From positions 2,009,424 to 2,073,423 of the forward strand of contig CAWIIQ010000001.1 in NCBI GenBank assembly GCA_963836185.1: a DNA stretch of 64,000 nucleotides, given 5' to 3'. Numbering within the stretch: the stretch's first letter is position 1; each line of letters starts with the position of its first letter. The notes beneath the pieces are model-generated. The model was not told where the DNA came from. It saw only the letters and a list, made by a program, of their open reading frames with translations, and made no database searches. The DNA is from Candidatus Krumholzibacteriia bacterium. Lineage in GTDB: Bacteria > Krumholzibacteriota > Krumholzibacteriia > Krumholzibacteriales > Krumholzibacteriaceae. Positions 46,187-64,000 of this stretch are shown here, in pieces. Both the position numbers and the translations under genes were made by a program.

Positions 46187-46227
46187 ACCATCTACCTCTA
46201 ATCACTCAGGTCTCAAATGAAACGGAC

Positions 46228-48137: not shown

Positions 48138-48175
48138 CGCGATTTTATCAAGGTCGGCTCTGGTGCAGCGTCTCG

Positions 48176-48884
48176 TCAGACCTTCTGCATATGCACGCAG
48201 GTGAGCTGATGTTTTTCTTCCGCGGTGACTTTCTTCGGGGGTATGATCTGGTTCGCCCACCGTCCAATGCTCCCCTTCCCAGAACTGCCAGTACTCCTGC
48301 TCTATAACTGCGCCCCCATTATCCCTGACCCATTTATCCAGCTCACTTCGCGAGAATGATTGCGTGATATACGGTGAATCCTGGCCGTAGCTTGAACCGG
48401 GCAGTTCATATACGTTTCTCACATAGCTTCTTTCGCTGTACGGACATGTCAATATGATATGACCACCGGGATTCAACAGGGAAAACATGTTCCGGACAGC
48501 GCTGTCCGGGTTTTGGATATGTTCAAGCACGCTTACACACGTGATCAGGTCAAACGTGTCCGACAGATGAGTCTTGACGATGTCGTCGTCGATGATGTGA
48601 TAGTGCCGATTAAACATTCCAGAGGGCCAGTAGTCGCTGACATTATCCGCTGCCGTAACAAGGCATCCGCAATTGCGCATCAGGTGCGGAAGTGCGGTCA
48701 GGCCGGTACCCACATCCAGGACCGTACGCGGATAGATCTCCCCAAGTTTCCTGAAGACGAAACTGAACTCGACCGGCCTCTCGTTGAATCGCGTGAAAGT
48801 CTGGGTCCTGAATTCTTTTTTGCATTTCCACCGCGGATACGTATTGAGCAGGTATTTAACAGCGTTTTCTGCTGACTTCAGCAT
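48176..48884 (-). CDS. Class I SAM-dependent methyltransferase (probable 1-nt indel at the G5 run 48237-48241 removes its stop)
   Basis: VLDVGTGLTA (motif I) and ...LLNPGGHIILTCPY... are present. In the assembled frame there is no stop before the amidohydrolase. Shifting frame at ccccc/ggggg gives ...EPDHTPKKVTAEEKHQLTCVHMQKV* ending about 40 nt before the amidohydrolase start. Confidence 0.55.
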
Positions 48885-48920
48885 CTGGACTCTCCTTATG
48901 TGGCCGCATTAGTTCATTCC

Positions 48921-49292
48921 CTATCGATATGTATACCCGAACGGAGTCAGAGAAAGCACAGCCAGTTTGATGTGCTGCTTCGCGAATGGTATCCCAATTA
49001 TAGTTATCGCGCACAGGACCCCGAAGATCACGTGTGTAGCCGCGATGTATATCCCCCCACACAGTATCCAGAGGATGTTCATTATGATAGACAGAGCACC
49101 CGGAGAAGGCTTGTTGAGAGATATCTCTTTGCCAAAGGGGAGAAGTGAGAGAAACGCCAGTTTCATCACCTGTATACCGAAGGGTATCCCGATGATCGTA
49201 AGGCAGAGCACCAGGCCGCCGATGAGATACTCGAGGAACAGGAAGATCCCTCCTCCAAGCAAGATCCACAGTATGTTTCCGATCAGGCTCAT
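48921..49292 (-). CDS. yccF: YccF-like inner-membrane protein (two DUF307 repeats)
   Basis: Two internal repeats (...NILWILLGGGIFLFLEYLIGGLVLCLTIIGIPFGIQVMKLA... and ...NILWILCGGIYIAATHVIFGVLCAITIIGIPFAKQHIKLA...) match the YccF architecture. Confidence 0.7.
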   Translation of the reverse strand: MSLIGNILWILLGGGIFLFLEYLIGGLVLCLTIIGIPFGIQVMKLAFLSLLPFGKEISLNKPSPGALSIIMNILWILCGGIYIAATHVIFGVLCAITIIGIPFAKQHIKLAVLSLTPFGYTYR

Positions 49293-49319
49293 GATCCCTT
49301 CCTCCTCTAAACAGTGAAC

Positions 49320-49733
49320 TTAATACAGCTTCCTGATCCTTGCCGAACAGATCGGAGCAAGAGATGTTGTAATCAGCACAAGCGCCCAGACTCTCCCACT
49401 GATCAGATCGTAATCCGAGAACAGCCTCTCCCACGAATGCCCGAACAGGTAGTGTCCCGCAAGGAACTCGAATGAGACTGTCATCAGCAACCATAATATC
49501 CCGATTAGTATCGCTTTGCCATTACTATCAGGCGCTATCCACCTGATCAGCAGCCACGCCACAAGAAAAATGAGAGCGCACAGGGTTACAGTGCTGATTA
49601 CATGGCCGGCGTATTCACCACTGACAGGAGCAATGAACGTGTTTCTGAGTATCCCGTTCAGAGTCGCTACGACCGACAGAATCAGCCAGACGATTATTGC
49701 TCGAAAATACAATTCAAAGTCCTCTTCAGACAA
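49320..49733 (-). CDS. Small inner-membrane protein (hypothetical)
   Basis: 137 aa with four predicted TM helices. Confidence 0.4.
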   Translation of the reverse strand: MSEEDFELYFRAIIVWLILSVVATLNGILRNTFIAPVSGEYAGHVISTVTLCALIFLVAWLLIRWIAPDSNGKAILIGILWLLMTVSFEFLAGHYLFGHSWERLFSDYDLISGRVWALVLITTSLAPICSARIRKLY

Positions 49734-49849
49734 GGCACGTCGTCTATCAGGTAACTATGCTCGATGAGGGGCAGGCTGACATATGAACAGATCACAAGCA
49801 GACAACATAGTGCCGTTGTGATAAGCAGACGCACAGTTGTCCTCTCTTT

Positions 49850-50200
49850 CTAGTCATCATCAAGTCCAAGCCACTTCCTGGCTTCTTCGATATTTCTGAA
49901 GACTTCGACTGTCAATGGTGAGTCCCGCAGTTCTGCGATCGTCTGATACATCCTCGCGAATCCGTACAGCAGGTCCGTACCAGCCACTATCGCCGATCTC
50001 ATCCCGGCCAGTTTCTCGCTATTGGCAGTGTCTATCTGGATATTGCGCTCAAGAGAACTTGACGAGCCCTGGACCTCCTCGATGCCGGACAGATCGACCA
50101 GTTCCCGCACTCCCGGCTTGATCCGGGAATCAGCCGCGACAGCCTCCCCCTGATCCCTCAGGTCCTTGTCGGTCACTACACCGAAGAGGCGCGTATACAT
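49850..50200 (-). CDS. Hypothetical small protein, paralog of 53210..53608
   Basis: Shares ...LVDL...ARMY...L...VF....EA..WLGL with the second copy. Confidence 0.4.
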   Translation of the reverse strand: MYTRLFGVVTDKDLRDQGEAVAADSRIKPGVRELVDLSGIEEVQGSSSSLERNIQIDTANSEKLAGMRSAIVAGTDLLYGFARMYQTIAELRDSPLTVEVFRNIEEARKWLGLDDD

Positions 50201-50455
50201 GACGTTCTTCTCTTCTCATACGTATACTCTACAGACATCTCTCACCTCTAAGATAGATGTTTTCATTCTGTTATATCTCCAATCAAATTCTCGACCAGGT
50301 GCTCAAAGGTGGTCGGATCGACACCGATTCCACCCCGAAACGGGTCACTCAGTGCCAGAATACTGTAAGTCATCTCAATCGCATGACCAAACACAAAAAT
50401 GATTATACCTTTCTCTGTCATATTGTAGTGAATCTCCCCGAACAGCTCATCAACA

Positions 50456-50842
50456 CTAGTACATGGGGTTTTCATTCACTCTTGTCTTTGGAATCTGCTG
50501 CATCGAGTCCCAATGCTCGACGATTTTGCCGTGTTCATCAAACCGGAAGAAATCCATCGTCACATACTCATCGCCTCCGGGCCATACCTGGTGAGTGTGA
50601 AGCGCAACCAGATCGCCTTCTGCAACCGATCGCACAAATTCAATCGACTTTTCAGGATACTCTGATGCCATTCTCTCGAAGTATTCGATGAACGGCTCTG
50701 GCCCGTTGCCGACCAGCGGATTGTGCTGGATGTATTCTGCGCCCACGTACTTCTCGACAGCTTCTCGAGGAGACCCTTCATAGGCGGTCTTATAGAACGC
50801 GATGGCATTTCTCTTGTTTGCTTCAATATCCTGAGTCACCAT
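50456..50842 (-). CDS. SnoaL-like / NTF2-fold protein
   Basis: ...KRNAIAFYKTAYEGSPREAVEKYVGAEYIQHNP...GDLVALHTHQ...EHGKIVEHWD... is the SnoaL-like polyketide cyclase fold. Trimmed to MVTQDIE. Confidence 0.6.
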   Translation of the reverse strand: MVTQDIEANKRNAIAFYKTAYEGSPREAVEKYVGAEYIQHNPLVGNGPEPFIEYFERMASEYPEKSIEFVRSVAEGDLVALHTHQVWPGGDEYVTMDFFRFDEHGKIVEHWDSMQQIPKTRVNENPMY

Positions 50843-51306
50843 ACCCTCCAATGCATGATTGCCGAGAATAGTAATTTCGCACACCGGGGGTCAACAGGAG
50901 AAGGATGCATCAAGAATCCGTCGACAGCTGTGACATATTGGATTGGGCTTCTAAGACCAATCAGGAATCCTTGAACGGTCAACCAGGCTGCGAGCGTCAC
51001 ACCGAGCACCAGCGTTCCTGTCCATGCCCAATGATATGTTTTCGACGGGAATACAGACGCTGCCCATTTCCATCGGGGACAGACCAATAGCCCATAAATC
51101 AGTGCCAAAGTCGCTGTTCCCATAATAACCAGTAAGAATAGACCCGGCAGATGGTAATCAGATACTGGCAATTGGGGCAGTAACTCATTCAGCTGAAGCG
51201 ATCTTCCCGAAGGATCGACCAGCATGGCAATGCCGCCATACAATCCACCCACACAGAGCAGAAGAAGCAGAAAAAGGATTACCCAGATGGTCAAGGGGCG
51301 GCGCAT
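50836..51306 (-). CDS. Membrane protein (hypothetical)
   Basis: 156 aa, four TM helices. Confidence 0.35.
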   Translation of the reverse strand: MRRPLTIWVILFLLLLLCVGGLYGGIAMLVDPSGRSLQLNELLPQLPVSDYHLPGLFLLVIMGTATLALIYGLLVCPRWKWAASVFPSKTYHWAWTGTLVLGVTLAAWLTVQGFLIGLRSPIQYVTAVDGFLMHPSPVDPRCAKLLFSAIMHWRVW

Positions 51307-51510
51307 GCATGTATCCCCTGTTATATTTGACTTTTCTTTTTATTTCCGCCAGTATAGTCAGTCACAGGTAATCGAATAATTTGTAATTATATAAGTAACA
51401 TATGCCATTTCCATACTACAACAATCTAAGCGCGACCAAGAAAGAGTATTTACAGGAAAAGCGATGCCATAGATAGCATTCCTGTCAAGGATCCGGACCG
51501 CATACACCCT

Positions 51511-52002
51511 GTGGCCATTAAACTCAAGAAGTCCCTTGAGGAGAATAAGCGCCGCGATGTAGCTAAGCATGCCTCTGAACTCTGCCGCCTGGTATGCAAG
51601 GGCCTCGACACAGAAGCACTCAGCGTAAAAATAAGCTCGAAGCGCCCATCAAGCGATACTGAAGAACTGCATGGCTTATATGAGTGGGCAGAGGGGGAAA
51701 CTCCTGTGCTTACTGTCTGGATGAAGACCGCCGTCAAGGGACAGGTGGTAGCGTTCAAATCATTCATCAGGACGGTACTTCACGAACTCTGTCATCATTT
51801 GGACTACACTCACTTCGATCTTGATGACTCTTTCCACACAGAAGGCTTTTTTAAAAGAGAATCTTCTCTCTACAAACAAATAGTCCCCATGGAGCTTCAA
51901 AAAAGTAAGCCAGATAAAAAGAAAGCCCCCCAAAAGAAGGCTGAAAGGCAAAAAAGTAAAGAGCCGGAACAAATGGATCTTTTTAACGCTTGCTTCGCCT
52001 GA
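51511..52002 (+). CDS. HExxH zinc-metallopeptidase-like protein (DUF45/SprT-like), possibly N-terminally truncated
   Basis: ...VAFKSFIRTVLHELCHHLDYTHFDLDDSFHTEGFF... carries an HExxH...H motif in a YgjP/SprT-like context. It starts with GTG and has no upstream ATG in frame. It is on the plus strand, opposite the surrounding genes, with AT-rich DNA upstream. Confidence 0.4.
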   Translation: MAIKLKKSLEENKRRDVAKHASELCRLVCKGLDTEALSVKISSKRPSSDTEELHGLYEWAEGETPVLTVWMKTAVKGQVVAFKSFIRTVLHELCHHLDYTHFDLDDSFHTEGFFKRESSLYKQIVPMELQKSKPDKKKAPQKKAERQKSKEPEQMDLFNACFA

Positions 52003-52035
52003 AAAGTCGTTTCGTGCAGACCAGGCGCCCGCGGG

Positions 52036-52605
52036 TTATTGCTCCCGCGCTGCTTTCCGAAACAACCAGGCCGACAAAAGCCACAGCGCGGCGAAGAACC
52101 CGGTCGATACCAGGATATCCAGCGGCCAGGTCGGCCCCGTGGAGCCGAATCCGGCGATCAGCGCGATCACGGCGACCAACACCTGAGCGAGCGCCGTCGC
52201 GAACAACGCGCGTGCCATTCCATGGGGCCGGAAGCGCGCGATGATGGCACCGATGATTCCGACGGCGAGCACCCCGCCATACATCAAGTTGGCGTCGTCG
52301 TGCTCAGTCCCGATGATGCCAACGGCACCGTTCACCCAGACGAGGATAAATGCTGCCGCGAGCGCAACGCCGACGGCGGATCGGTACGCGGTATTGCCTG
52401 TCTTCCTCGCTGCCAGCTCATAGGTGACACCAGCGCCGACCAGGAGGGCGCCGAGGACAGCGAAATCGGTCACATCCCAGACGACTTGATCGGTGACCTG
52501 CATCGCGAACAGGGGCAGCAGCATTATGAGCGCTGCGGCGGCCCAGGCTGCTATCCTCCATCGGTTCCGGCGCCGTCTGCCACCGTTTTCCGTGTTTCCT
52601 GTCAT
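52036..52605 (-). CDS. Membrane protein (hypothetical)
   Basis: 189 aa, 5-6 TM helices, Arg-rich N-terminus. Confidence 0.4.
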   Translation of the reverse strand: MTGNTENGGRRRRNRWRIAAWAAAALIMLLPLFAMQVTDQVVWDVTDFAVLGALLVGAGVTYELAARKTGNTAYRSAVGVALAAAFILVWVNGAVGIIGTEHDDANLMYGGVLAVGIIGAIIARFRPHGMARALFATALAQVLVAVIALIAGFGSTGPTWPLDILVSTGFFAALWLLSAWLFRKAAREQ

Positions 52606-52752
52606 CGCCTTGCCTCCGGTGATGCGTCTTGGCAGCCAGTCGCCATAAATGCCTCGTGAAACACCATGATGCCTTGTGGAATATTTTCACCTAACGGCAA
52701 GGCAAGGAATACTTCCTGTGGGATTCCTTCGTAAACCAACTCAGGATAATTT

Positions 52753-53175
52753 TTAAAAACCGAACTGTTTATAATAATTCGGATCACCGACAAGAGCGCA
52801 ACCCTGGGCGCCTAACTTTTTAAGCTGAGACAACCCTTCGTTAACAAGTGATTTCCCGATGCCTTGCTTTTGATACTCCGGCAAAACTGAAACCGGACCG
52901 AGGCCATACCAGCCTGTAGCGCCGTCAGAAATTGTTACAGGTGAAAAAGCAATATGCCCGATGACTTGCCCATCATTTTCTGCCACAAGGGAGATAGTCA
53001 AAACACCAGCTGCACGCAACGCATTTATTATGAAATGTTTAGTCTGGTTGCTGACTTGGACCGTCTCGAAGGCAGCTATTGTTACCTGGGTTATTGCCTC
53101 AATACCTGCGATCGTTTCTTTTCTAATAATCATTTCCATACTCCGGTTCCATTTCATAATTCTACCAGGATCCAT
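52753..53175 (-). CDS. GNAT-family N-acetyltransferase (start uncertain; possibly the Met at 53133)
   Basis: ...IGHIAFSPV...LGPVSVLPEYQKQGIGKSLVNEGLSQLKKLGAQGCALVGDPNYY... is the GNAT A/B motif. Confidence 0.65.
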   Translation of the reverse strand: MDPGRIMKWNRSMEMIIRKETIAGIEAITQVTIAAFETVQVSNQTKHFIINALRAAGVLTISLVAENDGQVIGHIAFSPVTISDGATGWYGLGPVSVLPEYQKQGIGKSLVNEGLSQLKKLGAQGCALVGDPNYYKQFGF

Positions 53176-53209
53176 AATCGTCGTGGCCGGAGCTCTGAGT
53201 CATCTTGAA

Positions 53210-53608
53210 TCATGAATTGTTCAGATCCTCTGGCAAGCCCAGCCATGCCAGGGCGGCGTCCATGGCACGGAATACCACAAAATTCCAATGCACAGAATCG
53301 GCAAGCACTTCATACATTCTGGCCAGACTGAAGGAGAGATCCTTTGTAGCCACAACGGCTACTTTTGTGCTTACTGTAATGCCGGTGAGTTTCTCTTCCA
53401 CTGATTCAGCAAAACGAAGAAGTGCTTCAGGGCTCCTGGAGCTGCTGTGTGTTTCCCGTAAGTCAACCAACATGTTCATCGGTGGTTTGAATGTATCGCT
53501 TTCAAAGAATGCTTTGTAGAAGGCAAGAAACTCGTCGTCCGGCACTCGCCCGGTATGCACAAAAACAACCAGTTTGTATTCCGGTCTGACATGAGATTCA
53601 ATGGTCAT
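53210..53608 (-). CDS. Hypothetical small protein, paralog of 49850..50200
   Basis: 132 aa with the shared C-terminal SLARMYEVLADS...VVFRAMDAALAWLGLPED motif. Confidence 0.4.
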   Translation of the reverse strand: MTIESHVRPEYKLVVFVHTGRVPDDEFLAFYKAFFESDTFKPPMNMLVDLRETHSSSRSPEALLRFAESVEEKLTGITVSTKVAVVATKDLSFSLARMYEVLADSVHWNFVVFRAMDAALAWLGLPEDLNNS

Positions 53609-53974
53609 AAGTCCTCCTTATATGATCCTGACTTCGTAGAGTATTTCATTTCCTCGCCACAAGAATTACTTCACCGCAATATTTCCTTAGTCCTGGAAAT
53701 AAGGCCAGCAAGATATTATCTGTTTTCTTTACAAGATACAGAAACCAACGAATGGGTGGAAATGTTAATCCGTTTCTAAAAATACGCTTACTCATAAAGA
53801 AAAGAGACATCAATTCAATGCTGTACATCAATCTTATAAGTCCTGGAGTCAAACGGCAGGCTGTCTTTTTATTCTATGTCGTGCTCTTCACTTTCAATGC
53901 GTTCCCATTCCTCAGGAGATATATGGCTATTTTTTGTCATCTTGTGATTCCTTTCTTGATCTTTTTACATTCGA

Positions 53975-54085
53975 TCCATTGTTCAGTTTCAGATGCGAAG
54001 ACGATTGCCCGGCCCGTGCCCCGCAGTCGCCGTGACAGACAAGACAGGCAGCTGAAGGCAGAAGCTGGATGACTTCATTTCCTCT
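53975..54085 (-). other. attC-like site (core conserved, ends degenerate)
   Basis: ...gttcagtttcagatgcgaag...gtgccccgcagtcgccgtgacagacaagac...cagctgaagg... shares the central core with the other attC copies. Confidence 0.4.
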
Positions 54086-54827
54086 CAACAGATCTTGCTA
54101 CAACGGCGAACTCATCAGCATCAGGATCATAAACCTTACCAGCAACATCACCCCAGATTTCAATTACCTGTAGCCCACAACTATCGAATTCGCTCTTGAC
54201 CTCTGATGGTTCAAAGCACTGAAGCCAATTGAAGACCTGACGCGTACGTTCCCTTTCGACTATGGTGTACTTGTCCAGTAATACTCGCTCTTTATCATAT
54301 TTGAACTTATTGAGAAATCCATAATATTCATCCGGAGACCAGAATCCGTTGAGAAGATTCAACTCGTAGGTTGCACTCTCTTTGCGTCGGTCGAACATGT
54401 GTTCGAATAGACATCGAGAAGAACAGCTCCCCCATCAGCCAGTAACATACGGTATTTATTCAACATTAAAGAACGCTGATCACGATTGAGCGCGCAAAAG
54501 TCACACATGATCATTATGATCAGATCAAAGCGAGCAATCTGTGTCATAGCTTAGATAGTCCGCCTCGACGTATTCGATATCCAGATTTTCATCTGCAGCC
54601 TTATCGCGGGCATATCGAAGCGAGTTGGCCGAAAAGTCAATTCCCGTGACTTTTGCACCGGCCTGAGCGAGGCGCTGTGCATATAACCCAGGCCCACATC
54701 CGAAATCTGCCACTCTGGATTCAGCAGTAAGCCCGAAATGCGACACGATCCACTCCACAGAACGTTCAATAAAAACAGGATTCCTCGATGCTGCCTCTAT
54801 ATTCTCATTCAGATGATACGAGAGCAT
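54075..54827 (-). pseudogene. SAM-dependent methyltransferase cassette gene, fragmented into three ORFs by two frame disruptions
   Basis: ORFs 54525..54827 (motif I VADFGCGPGLYA), 54359..54547 (LIIMIMCDFCAL) and 54075..54398 (C-terminal) are consecutive pieces of one methyltransferase in three frames. Confidence 0.6.
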
Positions 54828-54934
54828 CTGTTCCGATGTGTATGGATCGGTCCATAACTCTTGTGTTGTGTACTCCGAAAACGGTTCTAGGCCGTCTATT
54901 TACTTCATGTAAAAATTCGTACAATTGGATCTCC

Positions 54935-55010
54935 CTTAATCGCAGCTAAAGTTCAGCTTAAGCAGCAGCGAGAAGCGCCGACAACAAGCTATGATCTAAA
55001 AACCTTTCTG
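54935..55010 (-). other. Degenerate attC-like element
   Basis: ccttaatcgcagctaaagttcagcttaagcagcagcg resembles the left arm (cctaacgtgagcttcagctgcgg) of the attC family. Confidence 0.25.
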
Positions 55011-55036
55011 TCTGTGTCTCCAACAAGGGGCAGCCG

Positions 55037-56525
55037 TCACTTGATCTTCTTGGCCGGAATCTCCATGCCTTGGTAAAAGATGACCAGGCCGGTCACGGTG
55101 CCATCAGAATCTCGGCTGAAGGTGAAGTAATACGGCTTTCCGTCAATGAAGAATTCCGTCTCGGAGACGGCCATCACGTCGTCCCAGTAGTTCCCGTCCC
55201 CGGACCCGACCAGACGTCCATCCTCAACCTTCAGGAAGATAGAATCCCCTGGCTGCACTTCATACTGCCCGGTGACGGCATCGAAGATCGAGGGATCGAT
55301 CTTGACGGTCTTCCGCTCCGGCTCGGGTGTCGGTGGCGGAACCGAAGGGTCGAACGGCTGATACCCCAGCCATGTGAAGGGCGAACTCTGGTCACCGATC
55401 ACTCGCTCGACGATCAGGTGAGCGATGCTCTCGAAGTTGGAACTATTGCTCAGGAGGACAACCCCGATCTTCTTGTCCAGGTAGGTGACCGTGTAGTTCT
55501 CCCAGCCGACATCGTGACCCGTGTGGAAGAACGCCCGCCCGAACTCGGTTTCGAACAGGCCCCACCCAAGTCCCCAGGCGAGATGAATGGTCTTGTTATC
55601 CTCCGTTGTTTCGCCCGCCAACGGGCCGAACATTCTTTTGGACAGCACCGGGACCTGAGGCGCGAACATCTGATCGATCGAATCCTGCTCGAGACCCTCG
55701 CCACTCAGAACAGCAAGGAGTAGCCTCGCAAAGTCCGAGGCGGTGGTCAGCAAGGATCCGGCTGCGCTCGGTTTCGCGCCCCGGCTCTTCTTGATCCGTT
55801 TCTGTCGTTCCGTGTGCCCGTCGGCGTGGTTCGTTTCGAAAGCCGGCTCCCAGACATAGCTTGTGTGCGACATGTTCAACGGCATAAACAGACTCTCCCG
55901 GGCCAGTACATCCAGGGGCTTGCCCGTTATGTTCTCGACAACCATCTGCAGAAAGTGGAAACCCTTCGCCGCTGTAGCTGAACCGTTCGCCCGGTGGAAA
56001 GACGAACGTGAGTTCGCCTCCCTCCTACAGCAGGCGGAAATTGGGCCAGCCCGTGGTATGCGTCAACACACGGCGGGCCGTAATCTCCCGCATCCGAGGG
56101 TCATCCCTCAGATCCTCCCACTTCGGATACTCGCCGATGGGCCTGTCAAGGTAATCAACAAGGGGGCGATCCAACTCCAGCAATCCGTTCTCGACCAACT
56201 GCATGACCAGACAGGCAAAAGTCGGCTTGCTGAACGAGAGCCCGGGGAACACCGTCTCCCGATCCGGGACAAGTCCCGACGTACGGCTCTTCAGGCCCCA
56301 CTCGTGCTCGTAGACTACATCGCCGTCGTTGATGATCGCCATCTGAAGGCCCATCACGCCGGCGTTATCCATCACCGCCGCGACATACTCTTCTATTTCA
56401 CCTACGGAGACGTAGCTGTCGTCGATCCGCCTGATCTGCTGCCTGCCTGCATCGACCGTGCGCGAGTCGCATGCCCATAACATCGCAGTGACAAGCAGCA
56501 TGGGAATAAGGAGCATGGCTCTCAT
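55037..56525 (-). pseudogene. Beta-lactamase/transpeptidase-family serine hydrolase cassette gene, disrupted (in-frame TAG at ~56025 plus a 1-nt frameshift at ~55950)
   Basis: The N-terminal part has lipobox LWAC and SFSK (SxxK); the middle has ...PGERFSYSGEGF (the YxN-type motif region) in an unannotated frame; the C-terminal part has ...NITGKPLDVLARESLF... and HTG (KTG-like). The three pieces are separated by a TAG stop and a +1 shift. Confidence 0.6.
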
Positions 56526-56559
56526 GAATTCTTTCTCCGATCCGAAACGAGCGGGATTA

Positions 56560-56670
56560 CACTTTCGACAGCACATCGTTCAGCTTCAGCTGCGGTCGCC
56601 AGGCTGGCGCGGTGGGTGCCCCGCAGCCGCCGTGACAGCCAAGACCGCCAGTTGCATGCGAGGGTTAGGC
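56560..56670 (-). other. attC site
   Basis: cgttcagcttcagctgcggtcgccaggctggcgcggtgggtgccccgcagccgccgtgacagccaagaccgccagttgcatgcgagggttaggc; the R''-side GTTAGGC is at 56664..56670. Confidence 0.55.
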
Positions 56671-56674
56671 CTAC

Positions 56675-57118
56675 TTAAACCCTCTTGGGACGGAGAAACG
56701 CTACAACACCAAACGTTATTCCAACAAGAATATCCACTGCCGCACAGATAAATAGAATTGTCGATATACTTTGCATCGACGGGCCGTGAGATCGGTATGC
56801 TGAGGCCGCGTCGACAAGCGCTAATCCCAACATCAGAACAACGAATCCGACTACAACAAGACCAGATGTCGAGGCCCAACTTCGTTCCTTTGACACAATA
56901 ACTATAACCGCACAAGCAGTTGCTGCAACTAGGGTTAAACTAAAATTCACCCAGAATGCCGGCACGGCTCTATTTGGATTGGCACCAGGAGAGTTGTCAG
57001 ACTTGATCCCTGGGATCACACTCAGCGCCAATAATATGGCAACCAAGACGAGAAGAATCGTACAGCCCAGCAGCATTCGTCTGCTCGACTTGAGGTTCAT
57101 CTTCATAATTTCCTCCAA
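56675..57118 (-). CDS. Cassette-encoded membrane protein (hypothetical)
   Basis: 147 aa, 4 TM helices, flanked by attC sites. Confidence 0.45.
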   Translation of the reverse strand: MEEIMKMNLKSSRRMLLGCTILLVLVAILLALSVIPGIKSDNSPGANPNRAVPAFWVNFSLTLVAATACAVIVIVSKERSWASTSGLVVVGFVVLMLGLALVDAASAYRSHGPSMQSISTILFICAAVDILVGITFGVVAFLRPKRV

Positions 57119-57141
57119 ATCATGATCTCATTCCCAACTGG

Positions 57142-57237
57142 GCCAAACGTCTGTTTCAGCTGCGACAAGGCTGGCGAGCCGGTTGCCCTGCAAGCGGCAT
57201 GATAGTCGCAGTCGTCAGCTGCATGCGATAGTTAGGT
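57142..57237 (-). other. attC site
   Basis: gccaaacgtctgtttcagctgcgacaaggctggcgagccggttgccctgcaagcggcatgatagtcgcagtcgtcagctgcatgcgatagttaggt. Confidence 0.55.
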
Positions 57238-57255
57238 TGTGTGTCTCCATCTCTT

Positions 57256-57849
57256 TTACCTGCGATCGTGTATACGTGGCACGAACCGCGGAACCTTTTT
57301 TTTGTACTCAATATATCTCGTGCCGAAACGAGCCGTAAGTTCACGTTCCTCAAGCACTGCTATGACGAAGATCATCACCACGTAGACGCCCCACAGAAGG
57401 TAGAGTATCAGGTAGTTGGTCAGAAGTGCCATCGCCGCAATCGCTAAAGTCATCGCGACGAACCTTGGATGCCTCATGTGCGAGTACACTCCATCCTCCA
57501 CGAGGTTTCCAGGTTCATCCGGGGAGATCTCTGACAGTCCGAATGCCATCGTCTTAGGAACCCGGCGGTAGACCAGAATGTTGAGGTACGAAGAGCCCGC
57601 TATAAGAATACACGACACACAAGCCAACGGCCAGCGGAAGCCGTATCGAACGTGTAAGAGTGGATTGCGTACCAAATACATGCCCAGCATGACCAAGATA
57701 GTAGATGCGGCAACAATGAGCATGCTCCCGGTTGATCCCAGGCGCCGCCAGAATGAGACTAAAGAATGCAGCAGCACCCACGCTATCAGAGTTGCTGGAA
57801 CAGTGATGAGCGTAAGGAGCGCAAGGTAGTAGAGCACACTATCCTGCAT
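57256..57849 (-). CDS. Isoprenylcysteine carboxyl methyltransferase (ICMT)/PEMT-family membrane methyltransferase (cassette)
   Basis: ...DGVYSHMRHPRFVAMTL... and a C-terminal EE...T..FG..Y..Y motif in a polytopic membrane protein. Confidence 0.6.
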   Translation of the reverse strand: MQDSVLYYLALLTLITVPATLIAWVLLHSLVSFWRRLGSTGSMLIVAASTILVMLGMYLVRNPLLHVRYGFRWPLACVSCILIAGSSYLNILVYRRVPKTMAFGLSEISPDEPGNLVEDGVYSHMRHPRFVAMTLAIAAMALLTNYLILYLLWGVYVVMIFVIAVLEERELTARFGTRYIEYKKKVPRFVPRIHDRR

Positions 57850-57891
57850 CGGCTTTTATACCTCTCAAATGCCAGTTCGCCATGTGTCGCA

Positions 57892-57980
57892 ACCTAACGT
57901 TGGCTCCACCTGCAAAGACGATTGGCGCGGACAGTGCGCAAGCAGGGTACGTGACAAACGGCTTTGTGGGTGCAAGCTCT
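57892..57980 (-). other. Degenerate attC-like site
   Basis: Begins acctaacgttgg and contains the palindrome ccacctgcaaag...ctttgtgggtg. Confidence 0.3.
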
Positions 57981-57982
57981 TG

Positions 57983-58624
57983 TCAGGTCGTTTCCTTCGC
58001 TCCTTCGAGATAGACGGCGTCCATCGAAAAATCTTCCACCGGCTCGACAACACATCGGATGATCGCGAACCCGGCTTCTTGTGCCCATGTCGCCATTTCG
58101 TTGCTGCAGTATCTGAGAGCAACAATGTCCGACTCGTCTCCGTAGTCGATAGCCCCGCTGCCCTCCCACGTCGCGACAACAAGCTGCCCACCGGGTCCCA
58201 GGATCCGATACCACTCACGGAAGGCCAACTCAACACCCTCGGAATCCAGGTGGTGCAGTGCAAAGAAATTCAGGACCGCGCTGCTTGATCCGAGACCAAC
58301 TGCGGACAGGTCGCGCATGTCACCGACGACAAGCTGCGCATTAGGCCCGAGCTTCTCCCCAGCAATTGATACCATGCGCGGCGACAGATCTATTCCCAAG
58401 AGCGGGCGATTACTATCGTAGCGCTCGTGGTACATGGAGAGCATATGCCCCGAGCCACAGGCGGTATCGACAACTGCGCCCGGTATATTCGCAATGCGAT
58501 CACGCAGGCGCCCCAAAATGTCGGCATAGACTGGAAGGCCTATTTCCGCGTCCATCATCTGCGCGTACGAGTCCGCCGTTTCCTCATATATTTTGCGTAC
58601 TTCATTTGTGGGCGATGGCTGCAT
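57983..58624 (-). CDS. Class I SAM-dependent methyltransferase (cassette)
   Basis: VVDTACGSGHM (motif I), LGIDLSPRMV, VVGDMRD and LGPGGQLVV motifs. The ATG follows the attC R' box by 13 nt. Confidence 0.7.
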   Translation of the reverse strand: MQPSPTNEVRKIYEETADSYAQMMDAEIGLPVYADILGRLRDRIANIPGAVVDTACGSGHMLSMYHERYDSNRPLLGIDLSPRMVSIAGEKLGPNAQLVVGDMRDLSAVGLGSSSAVLNFFALHHLDSEGVELAFREWYRILGPGGQLVVATWEGSGAIDYGDESDIVALRYCSNEMATWAQEAGFAIIRCVVEPVEDFSMDAVYLEGAKETT

Positions 58625-58637
58625 GATTTTCCAGTCG

Positions 58638-58733
58638 ACCTAACGTCAGCTTCAGCTGCGACAAGGCTGGCGGGCCGGTTGCTCCGCAAGCGGCATGACA
58701 GCCGTAGTCGCCAGCTGCAAGCAGTGGTTAAGT
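58638..58733 (-). other. attC site
   Basis: acctaacgtcagcttcagctgcgacaaggctggcgggccggttgctccgcaagcggcatgacagccgtagtcgccagctgcaagcagtggttaagt, with RYYYAAC/GTTRRRY ends. Confidence 0.6.
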
Positions 58734-58739
58734 GGTGCC

Positions 58740-58958
58740 CTAATTCTTGGACTGGCGCACGCACCACATGATCGCAAGCACTGCGCCTAGAACGCATCCG
58801 GCCCCGAACACCATGCCTAAAAAGACGGCGTGAGGTAAAGTAAGCCGCCAGAACAATACGTTAGTTTCCACAGGCTGAAAGTTCTGCAAGACGATTATGG
58901 CACCAAGTACACCTAATACGATCGCAACGATCATCTTGGCGCGTGATGGTCCTGTCAT
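58740..58958 (-). CDS. Small two-TM membrane protein (cassette)
   Basis: 72 aa, AGGAGG RBS, two hydrophobic helices. Confidence 0.45.
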   Translation of the reverse strand: MTGPSRAKMIVAIVLGVLGAIIVLQNFQPVETNVLFWRLTLPHAVFLGMVFGAGCVLGAVLAIMWCVRQSKN

Positions 58959-58993
58959 ATTCCCCTCCTATTTGAGGCCCATAGTAAATATCC

Positions 58994-59056
58994 ACTTAAC
59001 GCTCCCCCTCAGCGGCGCGCCGCAAGCGGCGCGTCCGCTGCAGCGGGTTGTTAGGC
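58994..59056 (-). other. Short attC site variant (63 bp)
   Basis: acttaacgctccccctcagcggcgcgccgcaagcggcgcgtccgctgcagcgggttgttaggc; the arms cagcggcgcgccgc / gcggcgcgTccgctg pair with one extrahelical T. Confidence 0.5.
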
Positions 59057-59100
59057 CGCACCGCCACTGCGGGAACTTGGCAGCGTGATTTCGCCATTCC

Positions 59101-59646
59101 TCAGTTCTCTTGCATCGCTCCAAATCCCGTATCGTCCGCCTCGTGCATGTCGGGGACGTTGATGGCGTGCTCGCCCAGCCATTGGTTCACCTCGACTCGC
59201 TGGAAGCGTCCCTTGGCCCCGACAAGGAACCGGATCAGCTGACCGGGTTTGGCTGGCAGTACCCGGCCTTCCTTCACCACGATGGTGCCGTTGACGATCA
59301 CAAAGGGGATGCCGACCGGCGGCAGCCCGTTCTCGCCCTCCTTGTAGGTCGCGCGGGCAGCGACGGTGGACGGGTCAAACAGCGTCAGATCGGCAACCTC
59401 CCCGACCTGCACGCGTCCGCGCTCCTTCATCGCATCCAGCCCGGTGTCCCCCAGGTGCTTGGCGGTCCAGTAGCTCAACTGCGCCAGGGTGAACCCTTGC
59501 CTTCTTGCATAAGCGTGGCCATCATCAGGGCAAAAACCATGAAACCTATTCCTCACGACGGAAAATCCGGTGCTGCATGCTAAGGAACGCCGGCTTTCCA
59601 GACTTGTCACGCAGCAACTGACCAACCGTTCCCCGGAAGGGACCAT
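59101..59646 (-). pseudogene. C-terminal fragment of a D-aminoacylase/amidohydrolase-family gene (cassette remnant)
   Basis: ...LAQLSYWTAKHLGDTGLDAMKERGRVQVGEVADLTLFDPSTVAARATY...PFVIVNGTIVVKEG... corresponds to only the C-terminal ~130 aa of this family. The ORF's 5' end overlaps the upstream gene by 100 nt. Confidence 0.45.
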
Positions 59647-60985
59647 CTGTCATGATAACCATGTCTTTACCCGCGCTACTCATCGAAATCGGGGGAGGGT
59701 TCTCATAAACTTTCATTCCTCCTAATGGTTTGTATAAACGCTCAGCCATGAGCTGGTCGTTGTCAAAATAGAGTTTGTAGTCTTCATTATCCCCTAACCA
59801 AAGACCTTCGAAAGGTTCAAGGGAACTACGATCTGCAGTGATTGCAACTAAGGGTATTTTCTCAATATCTAAATACTTTTTGAGAGCCAGTGCGATTACC
59901 GCATCGTACACCTCAATACCACGGTCGCTGTTCGTAAGAACAACAATCCCAAATTTCTTATCCGGTGCAAACAGCATCTTGGCGGTAGCCCCTCCCGACC
60001 GACCGGCATGAAAAACGGTTCGCACACCGCCGATATCCTCAACGAACCACGCAACGCCGGTGTGTTCACTCAGCTCGCCTTCGACCAAGGGACTGTGCGC
60101 CAGGTCCAGCAACTTTGGAGACAACAGTTGACTGCCGTCCTTGTCCTTACCGTCAAACTGAAATTGCATCCACTTCATCATATCACTGACATTACTGAGT
60201 ATGGCTCCGGCCGGATAGACGCTGCGCGGAAAAGGCGCAAAGCTGACCTGAGGTTCGGACGTCCCGTCATATACTCCGGCATGGCCAACAGCAAAGCGGT
60301 CTGCCATTAGTTCCGCCATGAAGAAGGAGGTGTGCGTCATGCCCAGGGGCAGAAACAACTCGTCCTTAACTTTTTGTTCATAAGATTTTGCACGGCTTAC
60401 GCCTTGAATGAGACGTCCTGCAATGATGTAGTTGTTATTGTTGTAGGCCCAGACCTCGCCATAAGGTGTGCGTTGTGGTAGGAATCGAAAAGACCGCACG
60501 GCCTTCTCCAAGGCATCTTCCCCCGAACTGGGATCCTCAAAGTAGTCGCCTTGCCAGCCAGTCCGGTGCTGGAAAAGGTCGATGACCTTCGCCTTTTCTG
60601 AAGCCTCTCTATCCAGGACCGAAAACTCCGGGAGATACTTCCGAACCGGGGCTTCGAGGTCGAGCTCTCCGCGTTCTGCCATTTTAAGAACCACCGTGGC
60701 CGTAAAGGGCTTTGTCGTGGAACCGATATAAAACACGGTGTTTTCAGTGACAGCCTGAGGATCGTCAAGATTGGTAATGCCGATGCCGGCCATTTGGACC
60801 TTGCCATCGTGAATGATCCCAATGGCTATACCTGGGACTTTGATCTCGTCCATGAGCCGCTGAGCTTCGCTCTTGATTTCCTCAAACCTCGTGTCCAGGT
60901 TTTCCTGTGCAAATGCCTGTTGGACTGTCATCAATGACGAGACTATTACAGTAAAAAACAGTGCCATGTTTCGTTTCATTGTCAT
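59546..60985 (-). CDS. Beta-lactamase/esterase-family serine hydrolase (class C / EstB-like), secreted (cassette)
   Basis: Signal peptide MTMKRNMALFFTVIVSSLMTVQQAFA, SxxK as GSTTKPF, a YNNNNY (YxN) region and HAG (KTG-like). The start was trimmed to the Met with an AAGGAGA RBS; the ORF-track extension to 61120 is read-through of the attC. Confidence 0.65.
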   Translation of the reverse strand: MTMKRNMALFFTVIVSSLMTVQQAFAQENLDTRFEEIKSEAQRLMDEIKVPGIAIGIIHDGKVQMAGIGITNLDDPQAVTENTVFYIGSTTKPFTATVVLKMAERGELDLEAPVRKYLPEFSVLDREASEKAKVIDLFQHRTGWQGDYFEDPSSGEDALEKAVRSFRFLPQRTPYGEVWAYNNNNYIIAGRLIQGVSRAKSYEQKVKDELFLPLGMTHTSFFMAELMADRFAVGHAGVYDGTSEPQVSFAPFPRSVYPAGAILSNVSDMMKWMQFQFDGKDKDGSQLLSPKLLDLAHSPLVEGELSEHTGVAWFVEDIGGVRTVFHAGRSGGATAKMLFAPDKKFGIVVLTNSDRGIEVYDAVIALALKKYLDIEKIPLVAITADRSSLEPFEGLWLGDNEDYKLYFDNDQLMAERLYKPLGGMKVYENPPPISMSSAGKDMVIMTDGPFRGTVGQLLRDKSGKPAFLSMQHRIFRREE

Positions 60986-61035
60986 CTTGGGTTCTCCTTC
61001 TTTGATGTTGCTCTGGTTTGGGTCTTTCTCTTTTA

Positions 61036-61132
61036 GCCTAACGTGAGCTTCAGCTGCGGGCGCCGGCTGGCGCGGCGGGTGCTCAGCAGCCGCCGTGACG
61101 ACCAAGACCGTCAGCTGCAAGCAGAGTTAGGA
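61036..61132 (-). other. attC site
   Basis: gcctaacgtgagcttcagctgcgggcgccggctggcgcggcgggtgctcagcagccgccgtgacgaccaagaccgtcagctgcaagcagagttagga. The TAA stop of ORF 61127..61855 lies inside the R'' box. Confidence 0.65.
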
Positions 61133-61855
61133 TGTTGCCTTTTCTATTCTCACACCCTTTATCAGAAGCCACAGACAAAGTGACAGTTCTCCGACAAGTG
61201 GTGCAATATATATTGGTGCTATGCCCCCTGTATAGTCTGGCCAGAGAAATAGCGTAAAGCTACCAATCACATACCCTATTCCCGCAGCATACATGAGAAT
61301 GCCTAATATCTTTGGGAAATACTCAGAATTGGACAGCAAATAGCCAAGAAACAGACAATGAAGACCAAAGAACACTAGGCCAAGATCATACCCATGTTTG
61401 TGAATATTCAGGAACATCAAAGCTATTGAATTTAGCTGTGATGAGTCAAGAGAACTGAGATAGTCAGTGCCTTTGAGAACAATCAAAGCCGCAAAGTAAT
61501 TCAGCAGGTTCACACCATAGATCGCTGTTCCAGTCAGCCTGAATCCCGCTGAAACGAGGGAACCTGTTTTGCTCACAGACCTAAGCAGAATATACAGCAT
61601 TATGGCTACAACCACATCACAGAGGAATATTACCAGGTCACAGGCGAAACCAACTCGAAACAAACTTTCAGAAGCTAGAATGTTGTTTGCAGTCGCAGCA
61701 GCATCACCATGCACGATCAGGCTTCCCCGGACGAATACTTCGCTGAAGAGGCCAAAACCGATGATTATCAAGTATAAGACACCTGTGATCCGGGCATATG
61801 TCACAGTGGACATCTCAGATAGACGTGTCATCATATCCCCCTCCTTCCAATCCAT
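61127..61855 (-). CDS. Cassette-encoded polytopic membrane protein (hypothetical)
   Basis: 242 aa, ~7 TM helices. The ATG is 5 nt after the R' GTTAGG of the upstream attC. Confidence 0.5.
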   Translation of the reverse strand: MDWKEGDMMTRLSEMSTVTYARITGVLYLIIIGFGLFSEVFVRGSLIVHGDAAATANNILASESLFRVGFACDLVIFLCDVVVAIMLYILLRSVSKTGSLVSAGFRLTGTAIYGVNLLNYFAALIVLKGTDYLSSLDSSQLNSIALMFLNIHKHGYDLGLVFFGLHCLFLGYLLSNSEYFPKILGILMYAAGIGYVIGSFTLFLWPDYTGGIAPIYIAPLVGELSLCLWLLIKGVRIEKATS

Positions 61856-61859
61856 ATCA

Positions 61860-61957
61860 TCCTAACGTGAGCTTCAGCTGCGGTCGCCGGCTGGCGCGGC
61901 GGGTGCCCCGCAGTCGCTGTGACAGACAAGACCGTCAGCTGCAAGCGTGGGTTAGAC
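61860..61957 (-). other. attC site (first in the array, nearest attI)
   Basis: cctaacgtgagcttcagctgcggtcgccggctggcgcggcgggtgccccgcagtcgctgtgacagacaagaccgtcagctgcaagcgtgggttagac. Confidence 0.65.
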
Positions 61958-61989
61958 CGTTCTTTTATCTCATACTTCTGTCAACTAGG

Positions 61990-62394
61990 TTAAAACTTCT
62001 GAACCCTAAAATTGAGCGTTCCACTGTATTGACTAAGCACAAGGCGAATCTGCCAGGTACCGGAAGATCCGGTTAACGTTGTATCATTCAAGCTTGGTAC
62101 AAGGATCTTGTCGTAAACAGTCACGTCTCCTGCATCTTTGATTATCAGTCGCGCTGTTCCGTACGTAGTTGAAGTCGAGTGATTGACTGTGGCCTGTGTT
62201 CCAGTGTTGTTCCAATCATAGGGTAGAGTAGCAGTCCGGTTTATGACTCCGGTTGCTTGCAATTGAAAATTGTCAGTCACATTTGTCACTTCAGGTTGAA
62301 ATGGAGCCAGAGGATCATCGGAACATTGGTAAAATGTAGGAACACCGATAACGACGAGCAGGAATATTACTGTTTTAAAAGTGATGCGTTTCAT
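61990..62394 (-). CDS. First cassette: small secreted lipoprotein (hypothetical)
   Basis: Signal peptide with a lipobox (...TFYQCSDD), 134 aa. The ATG is 24 nt downstream of the attI core GTTAGAC. Confidence 0.5.
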   Translation of the reverse strand: MKRITFKTVIFLLVVIGVPTFYQCSDDPLAPFQPEVTNVTDNFQLQATGVINRTATLPYDWNNTGTQATVNHSTSTTYGTARLIIKDAGDVTVYDKILVPSLNDTTLTGSSGTWQIRLVLSQYSGTLNFRVQKF

Positions 62395-62500
62395 TGGATT
62401 CCTTTCTATTCTAGCTCTAGCGGTCTAACGTTATGTCTGTTGAACTAGGGTATTGGATATGACTGCGTGGGTGACTATGTATCCAATTTCTAGTTCTGGT
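62395..62500 (-). other. Candidate attI site
   Basis: The GTTRRRY core GTTAGAC (plus 62423..62429, read on the minus strand) sits between the intI stop and the first cassette. The adjacent inverted repeat ggtATTGGATAtgactgcgtgggtgactatgTATCCAATtt is a plausible IntI binding region. Confidence 0.4.
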
Positions 62501-62607
62501 TTATTATCTCATCAGTTTCCCAAAAATCAACAGCTTATCTGAAATACCTGGTGTGGCGGGTCAGGGATAGGCTGCAATATCTGTTTCGTAAATACTTTTT
62601 CTTATTG

Positions 62608-63640
62608 CTACATATCATCCAGAGGGCTCCTAACTCCCCTCCCTCCCCGGTTCAGGACGTGCGTGTAGATCATCGTCGCAGTGACATCCCGGTGCCCCAG
62701 GAGTTCCTGGATAGTCCTTATATCGTAGCCGTTCTCGAGAAGACGCGTCGCGAAGGAATGCCTGAAGGTATGGCAGGTCGCGTGCTTCGCAATTCCGGCG
62801 GCACGGACAGCTTCTTTTACCGCTCTCTGGAGGACCGTCTCATGCAGGTGGTGACGCCTGTACTCACCCGTCTCACCATCCCTGTAGAACCTCGTAGCCG
62901 GGAACACCCACTGCCATCCCCATTCCCGTGATGCTCCGGGGTATTTTCGGCTCAACGCATCGGGCAGGGCGACCGAACCGCGTCCCCTCTTGATATCTTT
63001 CCCGTGCTGTTCCCGGACCCGGGAGAGATGTTCCCTGAGACGATCCTTCAGGGTGAGCGGGAGAAGTGTCATCCTGTCCTTGTTCCCCTTCCCGCTCCTG
63101 ACTGTGATCTCGCCTCGCTCGAAATCAAGGTCCTTTATCCTCAGCCCGGCGCATTCCGGCAGTCTCATTCCCGAACCATAGAGCAGCGACGCCATAAGTC
63201 GCGGGGTCCCCTGCATGCGGCTCAGGACTTCCCGCGCTTCGCTATGAGTCAGGACGACCGGGAGCTTCTGAGGCCTCTTCGCCCTAACGATGCCGTCGAG
63301 CCATCCGAGATCGATTTTCAGCACATCCTTGTAGAGAAACAGTATCGCGCTTAGAGCCTGGTTCTGGGTGGAAGCGCTCACCTTTCTCTCCGTCGCAAGG
63401 TGCGAGAGGAACCGGGTCACATCTTCCTCTCCAAGTTCCAGGGATGTCTTTCCCGTTGAAGATGATGAATCGCTTGATCCATCTCCTGTACGAATCCTCC
63501 GTCCTGCGGCTGTAATGTCTGCCTTGATGGCATACTGACCTGGTCGAGGAGTCTGATCAGTTCCAGGAGTTTGATCTGGGCGATCTGAGTGGATCCGGGG
63601 ATCTTTTCTCGCGGACATACGACAGGCCTGTATCCGGCAT
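62608..63640 (-). CDS. intI: Integron integrase IntI (tyrosine recombinase); the N-terminal ~70 codons are disrupted by several 1-nt homopolymer indels
   Basis: The C-terminal 270 aa align near-colinearly with IntI1 (...[24 protein letters not shown]...[10 protein letters not shown]...[22 protein letters not shown]...[25 protein letters not shown] (the IntI-specific patch)...HTFRHSFAT...[23 protein letters not shown]...). The expected N-terminal motifs ([32 protein letters not shown]) are present but spread over three frames. The true ATG at 63640 has an AGGAGAG RBS. Confidence 0.8.
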
Positions 63641-63721
63641 CTTCTCTCTCCTGGTTGTAGTGGAGTCCCCCGACAGGAAGATTTTATTCTTTGTATGGTC
63701 GCACGTCAAGGAGCGGATAAG

Positions 63722-64000
63722 TCAGAAACAGGACGATCCATGAAAAAGGCCGGATGAAATATACCATCCGGCCTTTTCATTTGCTTTACTGAACCTCGAG
63801 GCTCTCAGCCCTGCTTGTCGTCCTCGTCTTCTGTGATCTCTTTCGTCTGTCGCCTGGATCTCGTCCTTCACGTCGGCTGAGGCTTTCTTGAACTTGCGCA
63901 TCGATTTTCCGATGGCCTCCGCCACTTCGGGGAGCCTGCGCGGCCCGAAGAAGATAAGGATGATGGCGAGGATGATCAGAAGCTCGGACCAGCCGAGCGG
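63722..64000 (-). CDS. tatA: Sec-independent translocase TatA/E-family protein, 5' partial at window edge
   Basis: ...LGWSELLIILAIILIFFGPRRLPEVAEAIGKSMRKFKKASADVKDEI... is the TatA TM helix plus amphipathic helix signature. Confidence 0.6.
   Translation of the reverse strand, partial: PLGWSELLIILAIILIFFGPRRLPEVAEAIGKSMRKFKKASADVKDEIQATDERDHRRRGRQAGLRASRFSKANEKAGWYISSGLFHGSSCF

Follow-up and report, generated by a model that had tools for sequence, protein, structure and literature searches.

What kind of element is formed by a tyrosine recombinase gene and a train of imperfect palindromes next to tatA in a Krumholzibacteriota-like chromosome, and is its recombinase still intact? The question is raised by a 64,000-nt stretch of contig CAWIIQ010000001.1 (positions 2,009,424 to 2,073,423 of the forward strand, assembly GCA_963836185.1, Candidatus Krumholzibacteriia bacterium), hereafter the window, in which an earlier note had proposed an integron with an IntI1-like integrase (intI), an attI site and about 10 attC-delimited cassettes. 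From our computational analysis, we consider with high confidence that a Krumholzibacteriota-like bacterium carries here a sedentary chromosomal integron, a gene-capture platform, with its integrase in the inverted configuration. All integron features that can be tested in silico were found, except for an uninterrupted intI reading frame.

The recombinase gene was delimited as follows:

62608-63640, minus strand: intI, integron integrase gene (stop codon at 62608, ancestral ATG at 63640-63638; longest open reading frame (ORF) 62608-63618)

The product of this gene is an integron integrase, neither class 1 nor Xer. It scored 418.5 bits against the NCBIfam integron integrase model TIGR02249 (cutoff 265), with 143 bits for XerC (cutoff 335) and 134 for XerD (cutoff 330), both Xer matches being split into two stretches. 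The best match among solved structures was VchIntIA (PDB 2a3v, 8e-76), in an alignment that runs unbroken through the IntI additional domain and is gap-free over query residues 205-250. By inspection, the catalytic R, K, HxxR, H and Y are present, with GSGMRL, GKGNKDR, HTFRHS, LGHRD and IYTHV aligned to the VchIntIA motifs. Furthermore, the Pfam catalytic domain takes up 200 residues for 167 profile positions, and this surplus of about 33 residues fits the IntI insertion of about 35 aa. The integron-specific patch previously read in a tyrosine recombinase at these coordinates is indeed contained in the ORF, and the protein neither scores as XerC/D nor lacks the IntI domain. The label IntI1-like holds loosely, for an identity of 57% over 275 aa to annotated IntI1, and fails at the class-1 equivalog NF011946, where the score of 325.9 bits is below the cutoff of 435. 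The closest IntI in a plasmid collection belongs to the Gemmatirosa kalamazoonensis megaplasmid (61% identity), and named relatives were found in Krumholzibacteria, Gemmatimonadota and Eisenbacteria.

Repeat finding recovered the repeat family of the window, which was then searched with two covariance models. The first, built from the window copies and run on the 64 kb with filters off, matched eight sites, all on the plus strand, and nothing else; on loci encoding IntI homologs it returned 107 sites in 81 loci, which adjoin IntI homologs from many phyla and always face the same way with respect to intI. The second, built from 73 foreign sites (68 distinct) beside IntI homologs and including no window sequence, matched seven window sites on the plus strand between 56.5 and 62 kb (E 7e-12 to 1e-3), with no other match in the 64 kb. 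In the foreign-site alignment, which leans toward the modelled structure to which it was fitted, paired cells amount to 92%, versus 22-41% with slid partners, compensatory changes occur in 23 of 31 pairs, and the AAC/GTT columns are almost invariant. An Rfam gathering scan of the whole window returned no family, a result neither for nor against the attC reading. The sites are listed here, with the match to the second model in brackets:

61860-61957, plus strand: attC a (61858-61961)
61036-61132, plus strand: attC b (61034-61136)
58994-59056, plus strand: attC c, short, 63 nt (58992-59060)
58638-58733, plus strand: attC d (58636-58737)
57892-57988, plus strand: attC e (57890-57992; 25.3 bits, E about 1e-3)
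57142-57237, plus strand: attC f (57140-57241)
56574-56670, plus strand: attC g (56569-56674; 39 bits)
near 54936-54975: truncated attC half-site h, only the 5' half of a site, recognised by eye
53972-54074, plus strand: relic attC i (only 11 bits, E = 2.3; both R boxes and the hairpin lost)

Among the nine repeat centres that had been put forward, eight match the first model and seven the second, the copy at 54030 being decayed and that at 54970 a half-site. The site near 54970 gave no match to either model and no fold, and was rejected as an attC. Hence, the expected count of about 10 attC-delimited cassettes comes down to seven bona fide attC sites and two relics. Left of 53972, in the low-GC small-gene region at 46-54 kb, neither model found an attC site with filters off, so that an extension of the array in that direction is unsupported.

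The structure of the sites is that of attC. In single-stranded DNA folding, the plus strand is favoured over the minus strand by 3.5-10 kcal/mol in six intact sites, and the two strands tie in the seventh, the short c; plus-strand z-scores range from -1.8 (site g) to -5.1 and are -3.3 or lower in five of the seven. The 54.0-kb copy (z = 0.02) and the 54.97-kb copy fold no better than shuffles. When the AAC/GTT pairing was constrained, six of seven sites shared one bulge pattern on the 3' arm of the plus strand. Counted from the 3' end, it comprises a single extrahelical base at position 16, always C, a 6-bp stem, and another bulge at position 23; in site b, the two bulges are at 15 and 22. Sites a, b, c and f have T in the second bulge, and sites d and g have C. 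This bulge geometry is the one described previously (PMC5027507). The plus strand of the window is the attC bottom strand, in agreement with the location of all cassette ORFs on the minus strand, and the bottom-strand folding that the earlier note had suggested as a check came out in favour of attC hairpins in the seven sites.

Regarding the sequence of the sites, RYYYAAC and GTTRRRY boxes had been claimed for every copy. In the top-strand reading, these boxes are perfect in sites c and d and reach six of seven positions in one box of a, b, e and f, the mismatch falling on a degenerate position in a, b and f; R'' of site e reads ACCTGAC because a TGA stop sits inside it. Site g departs further and is taken up below. 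Stop codons, which had been said to overlap R'' throughout, do so in only two of seven sites (b and e), and elsewhere lie 5-45 nt upstream. Intact sites are long (96-98 nt) and family-specific, with the exception of c, and their pairwise identity of 34-81%, with subfamilies a/b/g, d/f, e and short c, does not bear out a description as near-identical. Across arrays of related genomes (loci L083 and L084), attC sequences 89-96% identical were observed (L084 10728-10829 and 11475-11576; L083 11689-11772; window 56583-56675). As the attC sites are alike and the cassette ORFs differ among these relatives, a lineage-specific attC type is suggested, as with the Vibrio cholerae repeats (VCRs).

Between intI and the array, an attI site and two candidate promoters were placed:

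62427-62487, minus strand: attI, conserved block of about 61 nt (ATTGGATACATAGTCACCCACGCAGTCATATCCAATACCCTAGTTCAACAGACATAACGTT), ending in the recombination triplet GTT at 62429-62427
62503-62530, minus strand: candidate cassette promoter Pc, TTGATT-16-TG-GATAAT (sigma-70-like, 9/12 plus extended -10, in the intI-attI spacer)
63681-63709, minus strand: candidate intI promoter, TTGACG-17-TAAAAT (sigma-70-like consensus scan, 10/12; both hexamers identical in the related locus L081)

The attI block ends in AACGTT and lies 118-178 nt past the intI stop codon; its conservation among four related loci (the window, L081, L083 and L084) is about 90-100%. Of 181 spacer positions, the window and L081 share 171, and in the last 128 they differ at only 2; the two are identical up to ...CATAACGTT / ...CAGACATAACGTT, becoming unrelated immediately after. 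Likewise, in L083 and L084 (IntI 79-85% identical), the block of about 61 nt ends in the same ACGTT, with divergence right after it. Since this breakpoint is common to the relatives, the attI crossover is placed at GTT 62429-62427, and the attI proposed earlier stands, as a conserved block adjoining intI after which four loci directly diverge. The hexamers of the Pc candidate are largely kept in L081, L083 and L084; the sigma-70 consensus may not be that of the host phylum.

The minus strand carries intI and all cassette ORFs alike, with 178 nt between the intI stop and the start of the array downstream. This layout is the inverted integrase arrangement, in which intI is transcribed toward attI and co-directionally with the cassettes; the geometry departs from the canonical one, intI being not divergent from the array but pointing toward attI and the cassettes, a point that the earlier note had missed. 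The co-directional layout was also present in 20 other IntI loci, from Acidobacteriota, Eisenbacteria, Gemmatimonadota, Coriobacteriia and others, and was commoner in our locus set than the classical upstream layout, found in about eight loci, mostly proteobacterial. The inverted integron-integrase group was first seen in Treponema (PMC3607928; PMC4889954), and has been reported as paraphyletic (PMC4889954).

The chromosomal position of the integron is conserved, and its cassettes differ. In L083, L084 and a further related locus, L085, the gene order is folB-folK-dNK-panB-panC-ispD-HIT-LytR_C-DUF4321-tatA-intI, and the succession tatA-intI-attI is shared by the window, L081, L083 and L084, with L085 ending inside attI. 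Past intI, L083 and L084 carry co-oriented small genes, with attC matches downstream on the opposite strand, as in the window, and the cassette content after the same attI differs among the four genomes. To keep one chromosomal site within a lineage while the cassettes vary is how a sedentary chromosomal integron behaves, even if this array is small; the conserved synteny supports the sedentary chromosomal reading already offered in the earlier note. Its suggestion of a non-proteobacterial host is supported as well, by a window urocanase 85-96% identical to proteins of Krumholzibacteria/Krumholzibacteriota metagenome-assembled genomes (MAGs).

Seven attC-bounded cassettes of 356-2042 bp, with all ORFs on the minus strand, are followed by two decayed ones:

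61866-62428, minus strand: cassette 1, 563 bp; ORF 61990-62394, 134 aa, no family match; attC a
61042-61865, minus strand: cassette 2, 824 bp; DUF4386 protein, ORF 61127-61855; attC b, TAA stop inside R''
59000-61041, minus strand: cassette 3, 2042 bp; beta-lactamase-family serine hydrolase 59546-60988 and 3' amidohydrolase fragment 59101-59646; attC c
58644-58999, minus strand: cassette 4, 356 bp; LapA-domain membrane protein, 72 aa, 58740-58958; attC d
57898-58643, minus strand: cassette 5, 746 bp; S-adenosylmethionine (SAM)-dependent methyltransferase, 213 aa, 57983-58624; attC e
57148-57897, minus strand: cassette 6, 750 bp; PEMT/ICMT-family membrane methyltransferase, 197 aa, 57256-57849; attC f
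56574-57147, minus strand: cassette 7, about 574 bp; membrane protein, 147 aa, 56675-57118; attC g
54936-56573, minus strand: decayed cassette 8; beta-lactamase-family gene split into ORFs 56025-56576 and 55037-55945; half-site h
53972-54935, minus strand: decayed cassette 9; methyltransferase in three ORFs (54525-54827, 54359-54547, 54075-54398), two frameshifts; relic attC i

No recognised resistance genes are carried by the locus. The cassette 3 hydrolase matched PF00144 at 1.5e-66 and reached 106 bits with the class C beta-lactamase model, versus a cutoff of 415; the amidohydrolase match in the same cassette is limited to profile positions 430-513 of 517. Decay marks the distal end of the array: the last two cassettes are bounded by the eroded sites h and i, and cassette 8 carries an in-frame stop and a frameshift, its Pfam halves covering profile positions 2-109 and 154-313 of 329.

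Some further observations concern the DNA beyond this end. An ORF at 53646-53852, left of relic i, ends in ...GEVILVARK, resembling the C-terminus of the broken methyltransferase (...FAVVARSVERK); DNA repeat D7 matches it to 54075-54398 at 72%, and it may be the remnant of a duplicated cassette. The region 46000-53970 has a GC content of 0.43-0.51, versus 0.55-0.62 elsewhere, and holds small, mostly minus-strand accessory genes (GNAT, SnoaL-like, YccF-like, membrane proteins), among them two SpoIIAA-like paralogs (49850-50200 and 53210-53608, 33% identity). Although cassette-like in appearance, it gave no attC match; it may represent an older portion of the array that has eroded, or just an accessory island. 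Another accessory gene that looks frameshifted or fused lies at 46697-48884 on the minus strand, where the reading frame of a methyltransferase extends into the start of an amidohydrolase (signal peptide and N-terminal part), the remainder of which is in another frame (46697-47731).

Two other origins of the locus have to be weighed. A Xer-like or phage-type recombinase standing by chance beside repetitive extragenic palindrome (REP)-like sequences or terminators would explain repeats that are GC-rich hairpins after ORFs, as terminators are; however, these hairpins are without T-tracts and carry an invariant AAC/GTT and one-sided bulges at 16 and 23, sites found by the first model adjoin IntI homologs of many phyla in fixed orientation, and the protein passed the IntI model and failed the Xer models, so that we regard this explanation as scarcely credible. 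Nor does a mobile class 1-like integron, recently acquired on a transposon or plasmid, seem anything but very improbable. The 57% identity to IntI1 and the presence of one beta-lactamase-family cassette would suit it, but NF011946 was missed (326 vs 435), housekeeping genes flank the locus, its tatA-intI junction recurs in four related genomes, and no tni, qacEdelta1/sul1 or transposase was present among cassette or flank ORFs. Moreover, the beta-lactamase-family protein falls far from class C (106 vs 415), and the attC sites are long (96-98 nt) and family-specific.

A sedentary chromosomal integron is our preferred reading, and several observations weigh against it. More than 19 attC sites is one criterion used for a sedentary chromosomal integron (PMC4889954), and the array, with only 7-8, is well below this number; nor is it large and homogeneous, with seven sites plus two relics. 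C takes the place of the usual G as first extrahelical base. In site e, the second bulge is missing and R'' contains GAC instead of AAC; in site g, R' reads AACGATG, without its GTT, a loss by which the junction is probably fixed. The second covariance model is not fully independent, because its sites were collected with the first model, itself built from the copies in the window, and the lean of its alignment toward the modelled structure counts in the same direction. Both promoters are candidates, with a function suggested by consensus matches only. Finally, the reading frame of intI is interrupted in the window sequence, and since the gene is not an intact ORF here, its activity cannot be assumed.

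The interruptions are confined to one end of the gene. The catalytic part (62608-63441; 834 nt, 277 codons) contains no insertion or deletion (indel) and no stop, and its ratio of nonsynonymous to synonymous substitution rates (dN/dS) versus L081 is 0.13 at dS = 0.23. The 5' portion of about 200 nt has at least five frameshifts relative to an intact ortholog. In the three-frame translation of 63380-63730, conserved N-terminal segments are spread over three frames, successively the first, second, third (YAIKA), first, second (RHPWNL) and third (rest of the protein), and the closest database homolog, P0001 (358 aa, contig L081), reads through all of them in one frame. With L081 as the reference for indels (about 92% DNA identity), the window intI is missing four single bases (at about 63532, 63519, 63447 and 63443), in three cases through homopolymer contraction, and its proline/serine/threonine-rich linker is shorter by 40 nt, a difference not divisible by three. 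At 63560-63600, in the frame with LLDQVS, the variable N-terminal linker seems to contain a short tandem duplication, relatives having a single KLL(D/E)(Q/L)V motif. Phase variation and programmed frameshifting were rejected, as at least five separate indels in different sequence contexts rule out a single switch.

Other genes of the window also bear on these frameshifts:

34367-37799, minus strand: dnaE (DNA polymerase III alpha), two overlapping ORFs with a single frameshift near 36.1-36.4 kb; one half with PHP and NTPase positions 1-182, the other with NTPase 174-260 and the finger, HhH and OB domains
63722-64000, minus strand: tatA, immediately upstream of intI, with a 1-nt insertion near 63850 versus L081

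A frameshift in the essential dnaE points to an assembly indel error. In tatA, the insertion replaces the normal acidic C-terminus (...EDEDDKQG*) by a long aberrant tail, whose reading frame extends across the terminator hairpin at 63744-63777. In a comparison with a related MAG, eight consecutive core genes (7-22 kb) were identical in length in four cases, 1-13 residues off in three, and 24 off in urocanase. The closest core-genome relative, L082, is about 80% identical, at which level gaps are alignment noise, and only the gene-length agreement over 7-22 kb is usable for the indel rate. In a single metagenome scan with a degenerate attI pattern, only the L084 contig matched, and no independent copy of the frameshifted intI was obtained.

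Considering the clustering of the indels, the lesions in dnaE and tatA, and the strongly constrained catalytic part, we lean slightly toward a local assembly error as the source of the intI frameshifts. True inactivation, favoured by the truly decayed distal cassettes, may also account for them, and we hold it to be quite plausible, if short of probable. Were the frameshifts real, the locus would be a dead integron, its attC array beside an intI pseudogene as a step toward an attC cluster with no integron-integrase (CALIN), and cassettes would be neither captured nor shuffled unless another integrase acted in trans. This outcome is conceivable and deserves some credence, though our doubts outweigh it. 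It agrees with four 1-nt deletions and an out-of-frame linker measured against a 92%-identical intact ortholog, with an in-frame stop and frameshift in one distal cassette and two frameshifts in another, with a degenerate site i, a half-site h and a site g without the R' GTT, and with a frameshift density much higher in the accessory region than in core genes; in addition, intI pseudogenes beside arrays are known (PMC4889954). It fits poorly with 834 nt free of indels and stops at a dN/dS of 0.13, and with a restriction of at least five indels to the leading 28% of the gene, which is unlikely under neutral decay (roughly 0.3^4 to 0.3^5). Furthermore, the dnaE frameshift and the tatA insertion both suggest assembly indel errors, three of the four deletions are homopolymer contractions, and attI and the proximal attC sites are intact.

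For the sedentary integron that we prefer, the analysis demonstrates the nature of the integrase, the junction at attI, the structure and strand asymmetry of the attC sites, a chromosomal position kept among relatives whose cassettes differ, and the decayed distal array; recombination activity and promoter function are what we infer. Along the minus strand, the order is tatA, intI, a 178-nt spacer with the candidate Pc and attI, seven attC-bounded cassettes, and two decayed cassettes. Following the established IntI mechanism, IntI would bind the folded attC bottom strand (plus strand of the window), cleave between A and C of 5'-AAC, and exchange the strand with attI at G/TT (62429-62427), whereby new cassettes would be inserted next to Pc in the sense orientation. 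Excision would proceed through attC x attC recombination, and cassettes could be expressed from the spacer promoter, by read-through out of intI, or by both.

A more far-reaching interpretation, which we put forward tentatively and with more doubt than belief, is that this is the first described lineage-wide sedentary integron of Krumholzibacteriota, tatA-anchored, with a reverse integrase and C as first extrahelical base, caught during integrase inactivation. Under the same doubtful interpretation, clustered frameshifts would have shattered the N-terminal DNA-binding region, leaving the catalytic domain, attI and proximal attC sites intact. Integrons are known from many phyla (PMC8618304; PMC9024848), and Krumholzibacteriota is not on the list of integron-bearing phyla of a 2021 review (PMC8618304). 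In the library that we searched, no paper on integrons in Krumholzibacteriota was found; automatic annotation already labels integron integrases in Krumholzibacteria MAGs. In this context, the locus is a well-resolved integron example in a candidate phylum that changes no concept, the reverse orientation having been described already. As its junction is defined to the nucleotide by comparison with relatives, the attI is experimentally usable, and together with the attC family (canonical geometry, C as first extrahelical base) it could serve tests of IntI substrate rules beyond Proteobacteria.

Among known systems, a CALIN with an intI pseudogene would resemble the locus if the frameshifts are real, as an attC cluster beside a disrupted intI; disrupted intI has been found near 15 of 279 CALINs (PMC4889954). 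The window differs in that attI is intact, as are the catalytic two-thirds of intI, which evolve under purifying selection, so that inactivation would be very recent or an artefact. With the class 1 integron it shares the recombinase family (57% identity to IntI1), the catalytic motifs, the GTT triplet and the cassette organisation, but not the Tn402 context, recognised resistance cassettes or a score reaching the IntI1 equivalog cutoff; its attC sites are long, its location is chromosomal with conserved synteny, and its intI is inverted.

The Vibrio cholerae superintegron (VchIntIA, VCR) is likewise sedentary and chromosomal, with long lineage-specific attC sites and bottom-strand hairpins with extrahelical bases, and its integrase aligns at 8e-76, including the additional domain. 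However, it comprises more than 100 cassettes, versus 7-9 in the window, VCRs are highly homogeneous, versus 34-81% identity here, the first extrahelical base is G instead of C, VCR2 has three bulges instead of two, and the orientation of intI relative to the array is opposite. That orientation is instead matched by the Treponema denticola integron and the inverted group, which are also chromosomal, non-proteobacterial and have the array downstream of the intI stop (PMC3607928; PMC4889954); the likeness concerns the layout, and the phyla differ (Spirochaetota versus a Krumholzibacteriota-like bacterium). Closest among plasmid-borne IntI is that of the Gemmatirosa kalamazoonensis megaplasmid (61%), from another phylum outside Proteobacteria (Gemmatimonadota), whose integron has been noted as a large array (PMC9024848).

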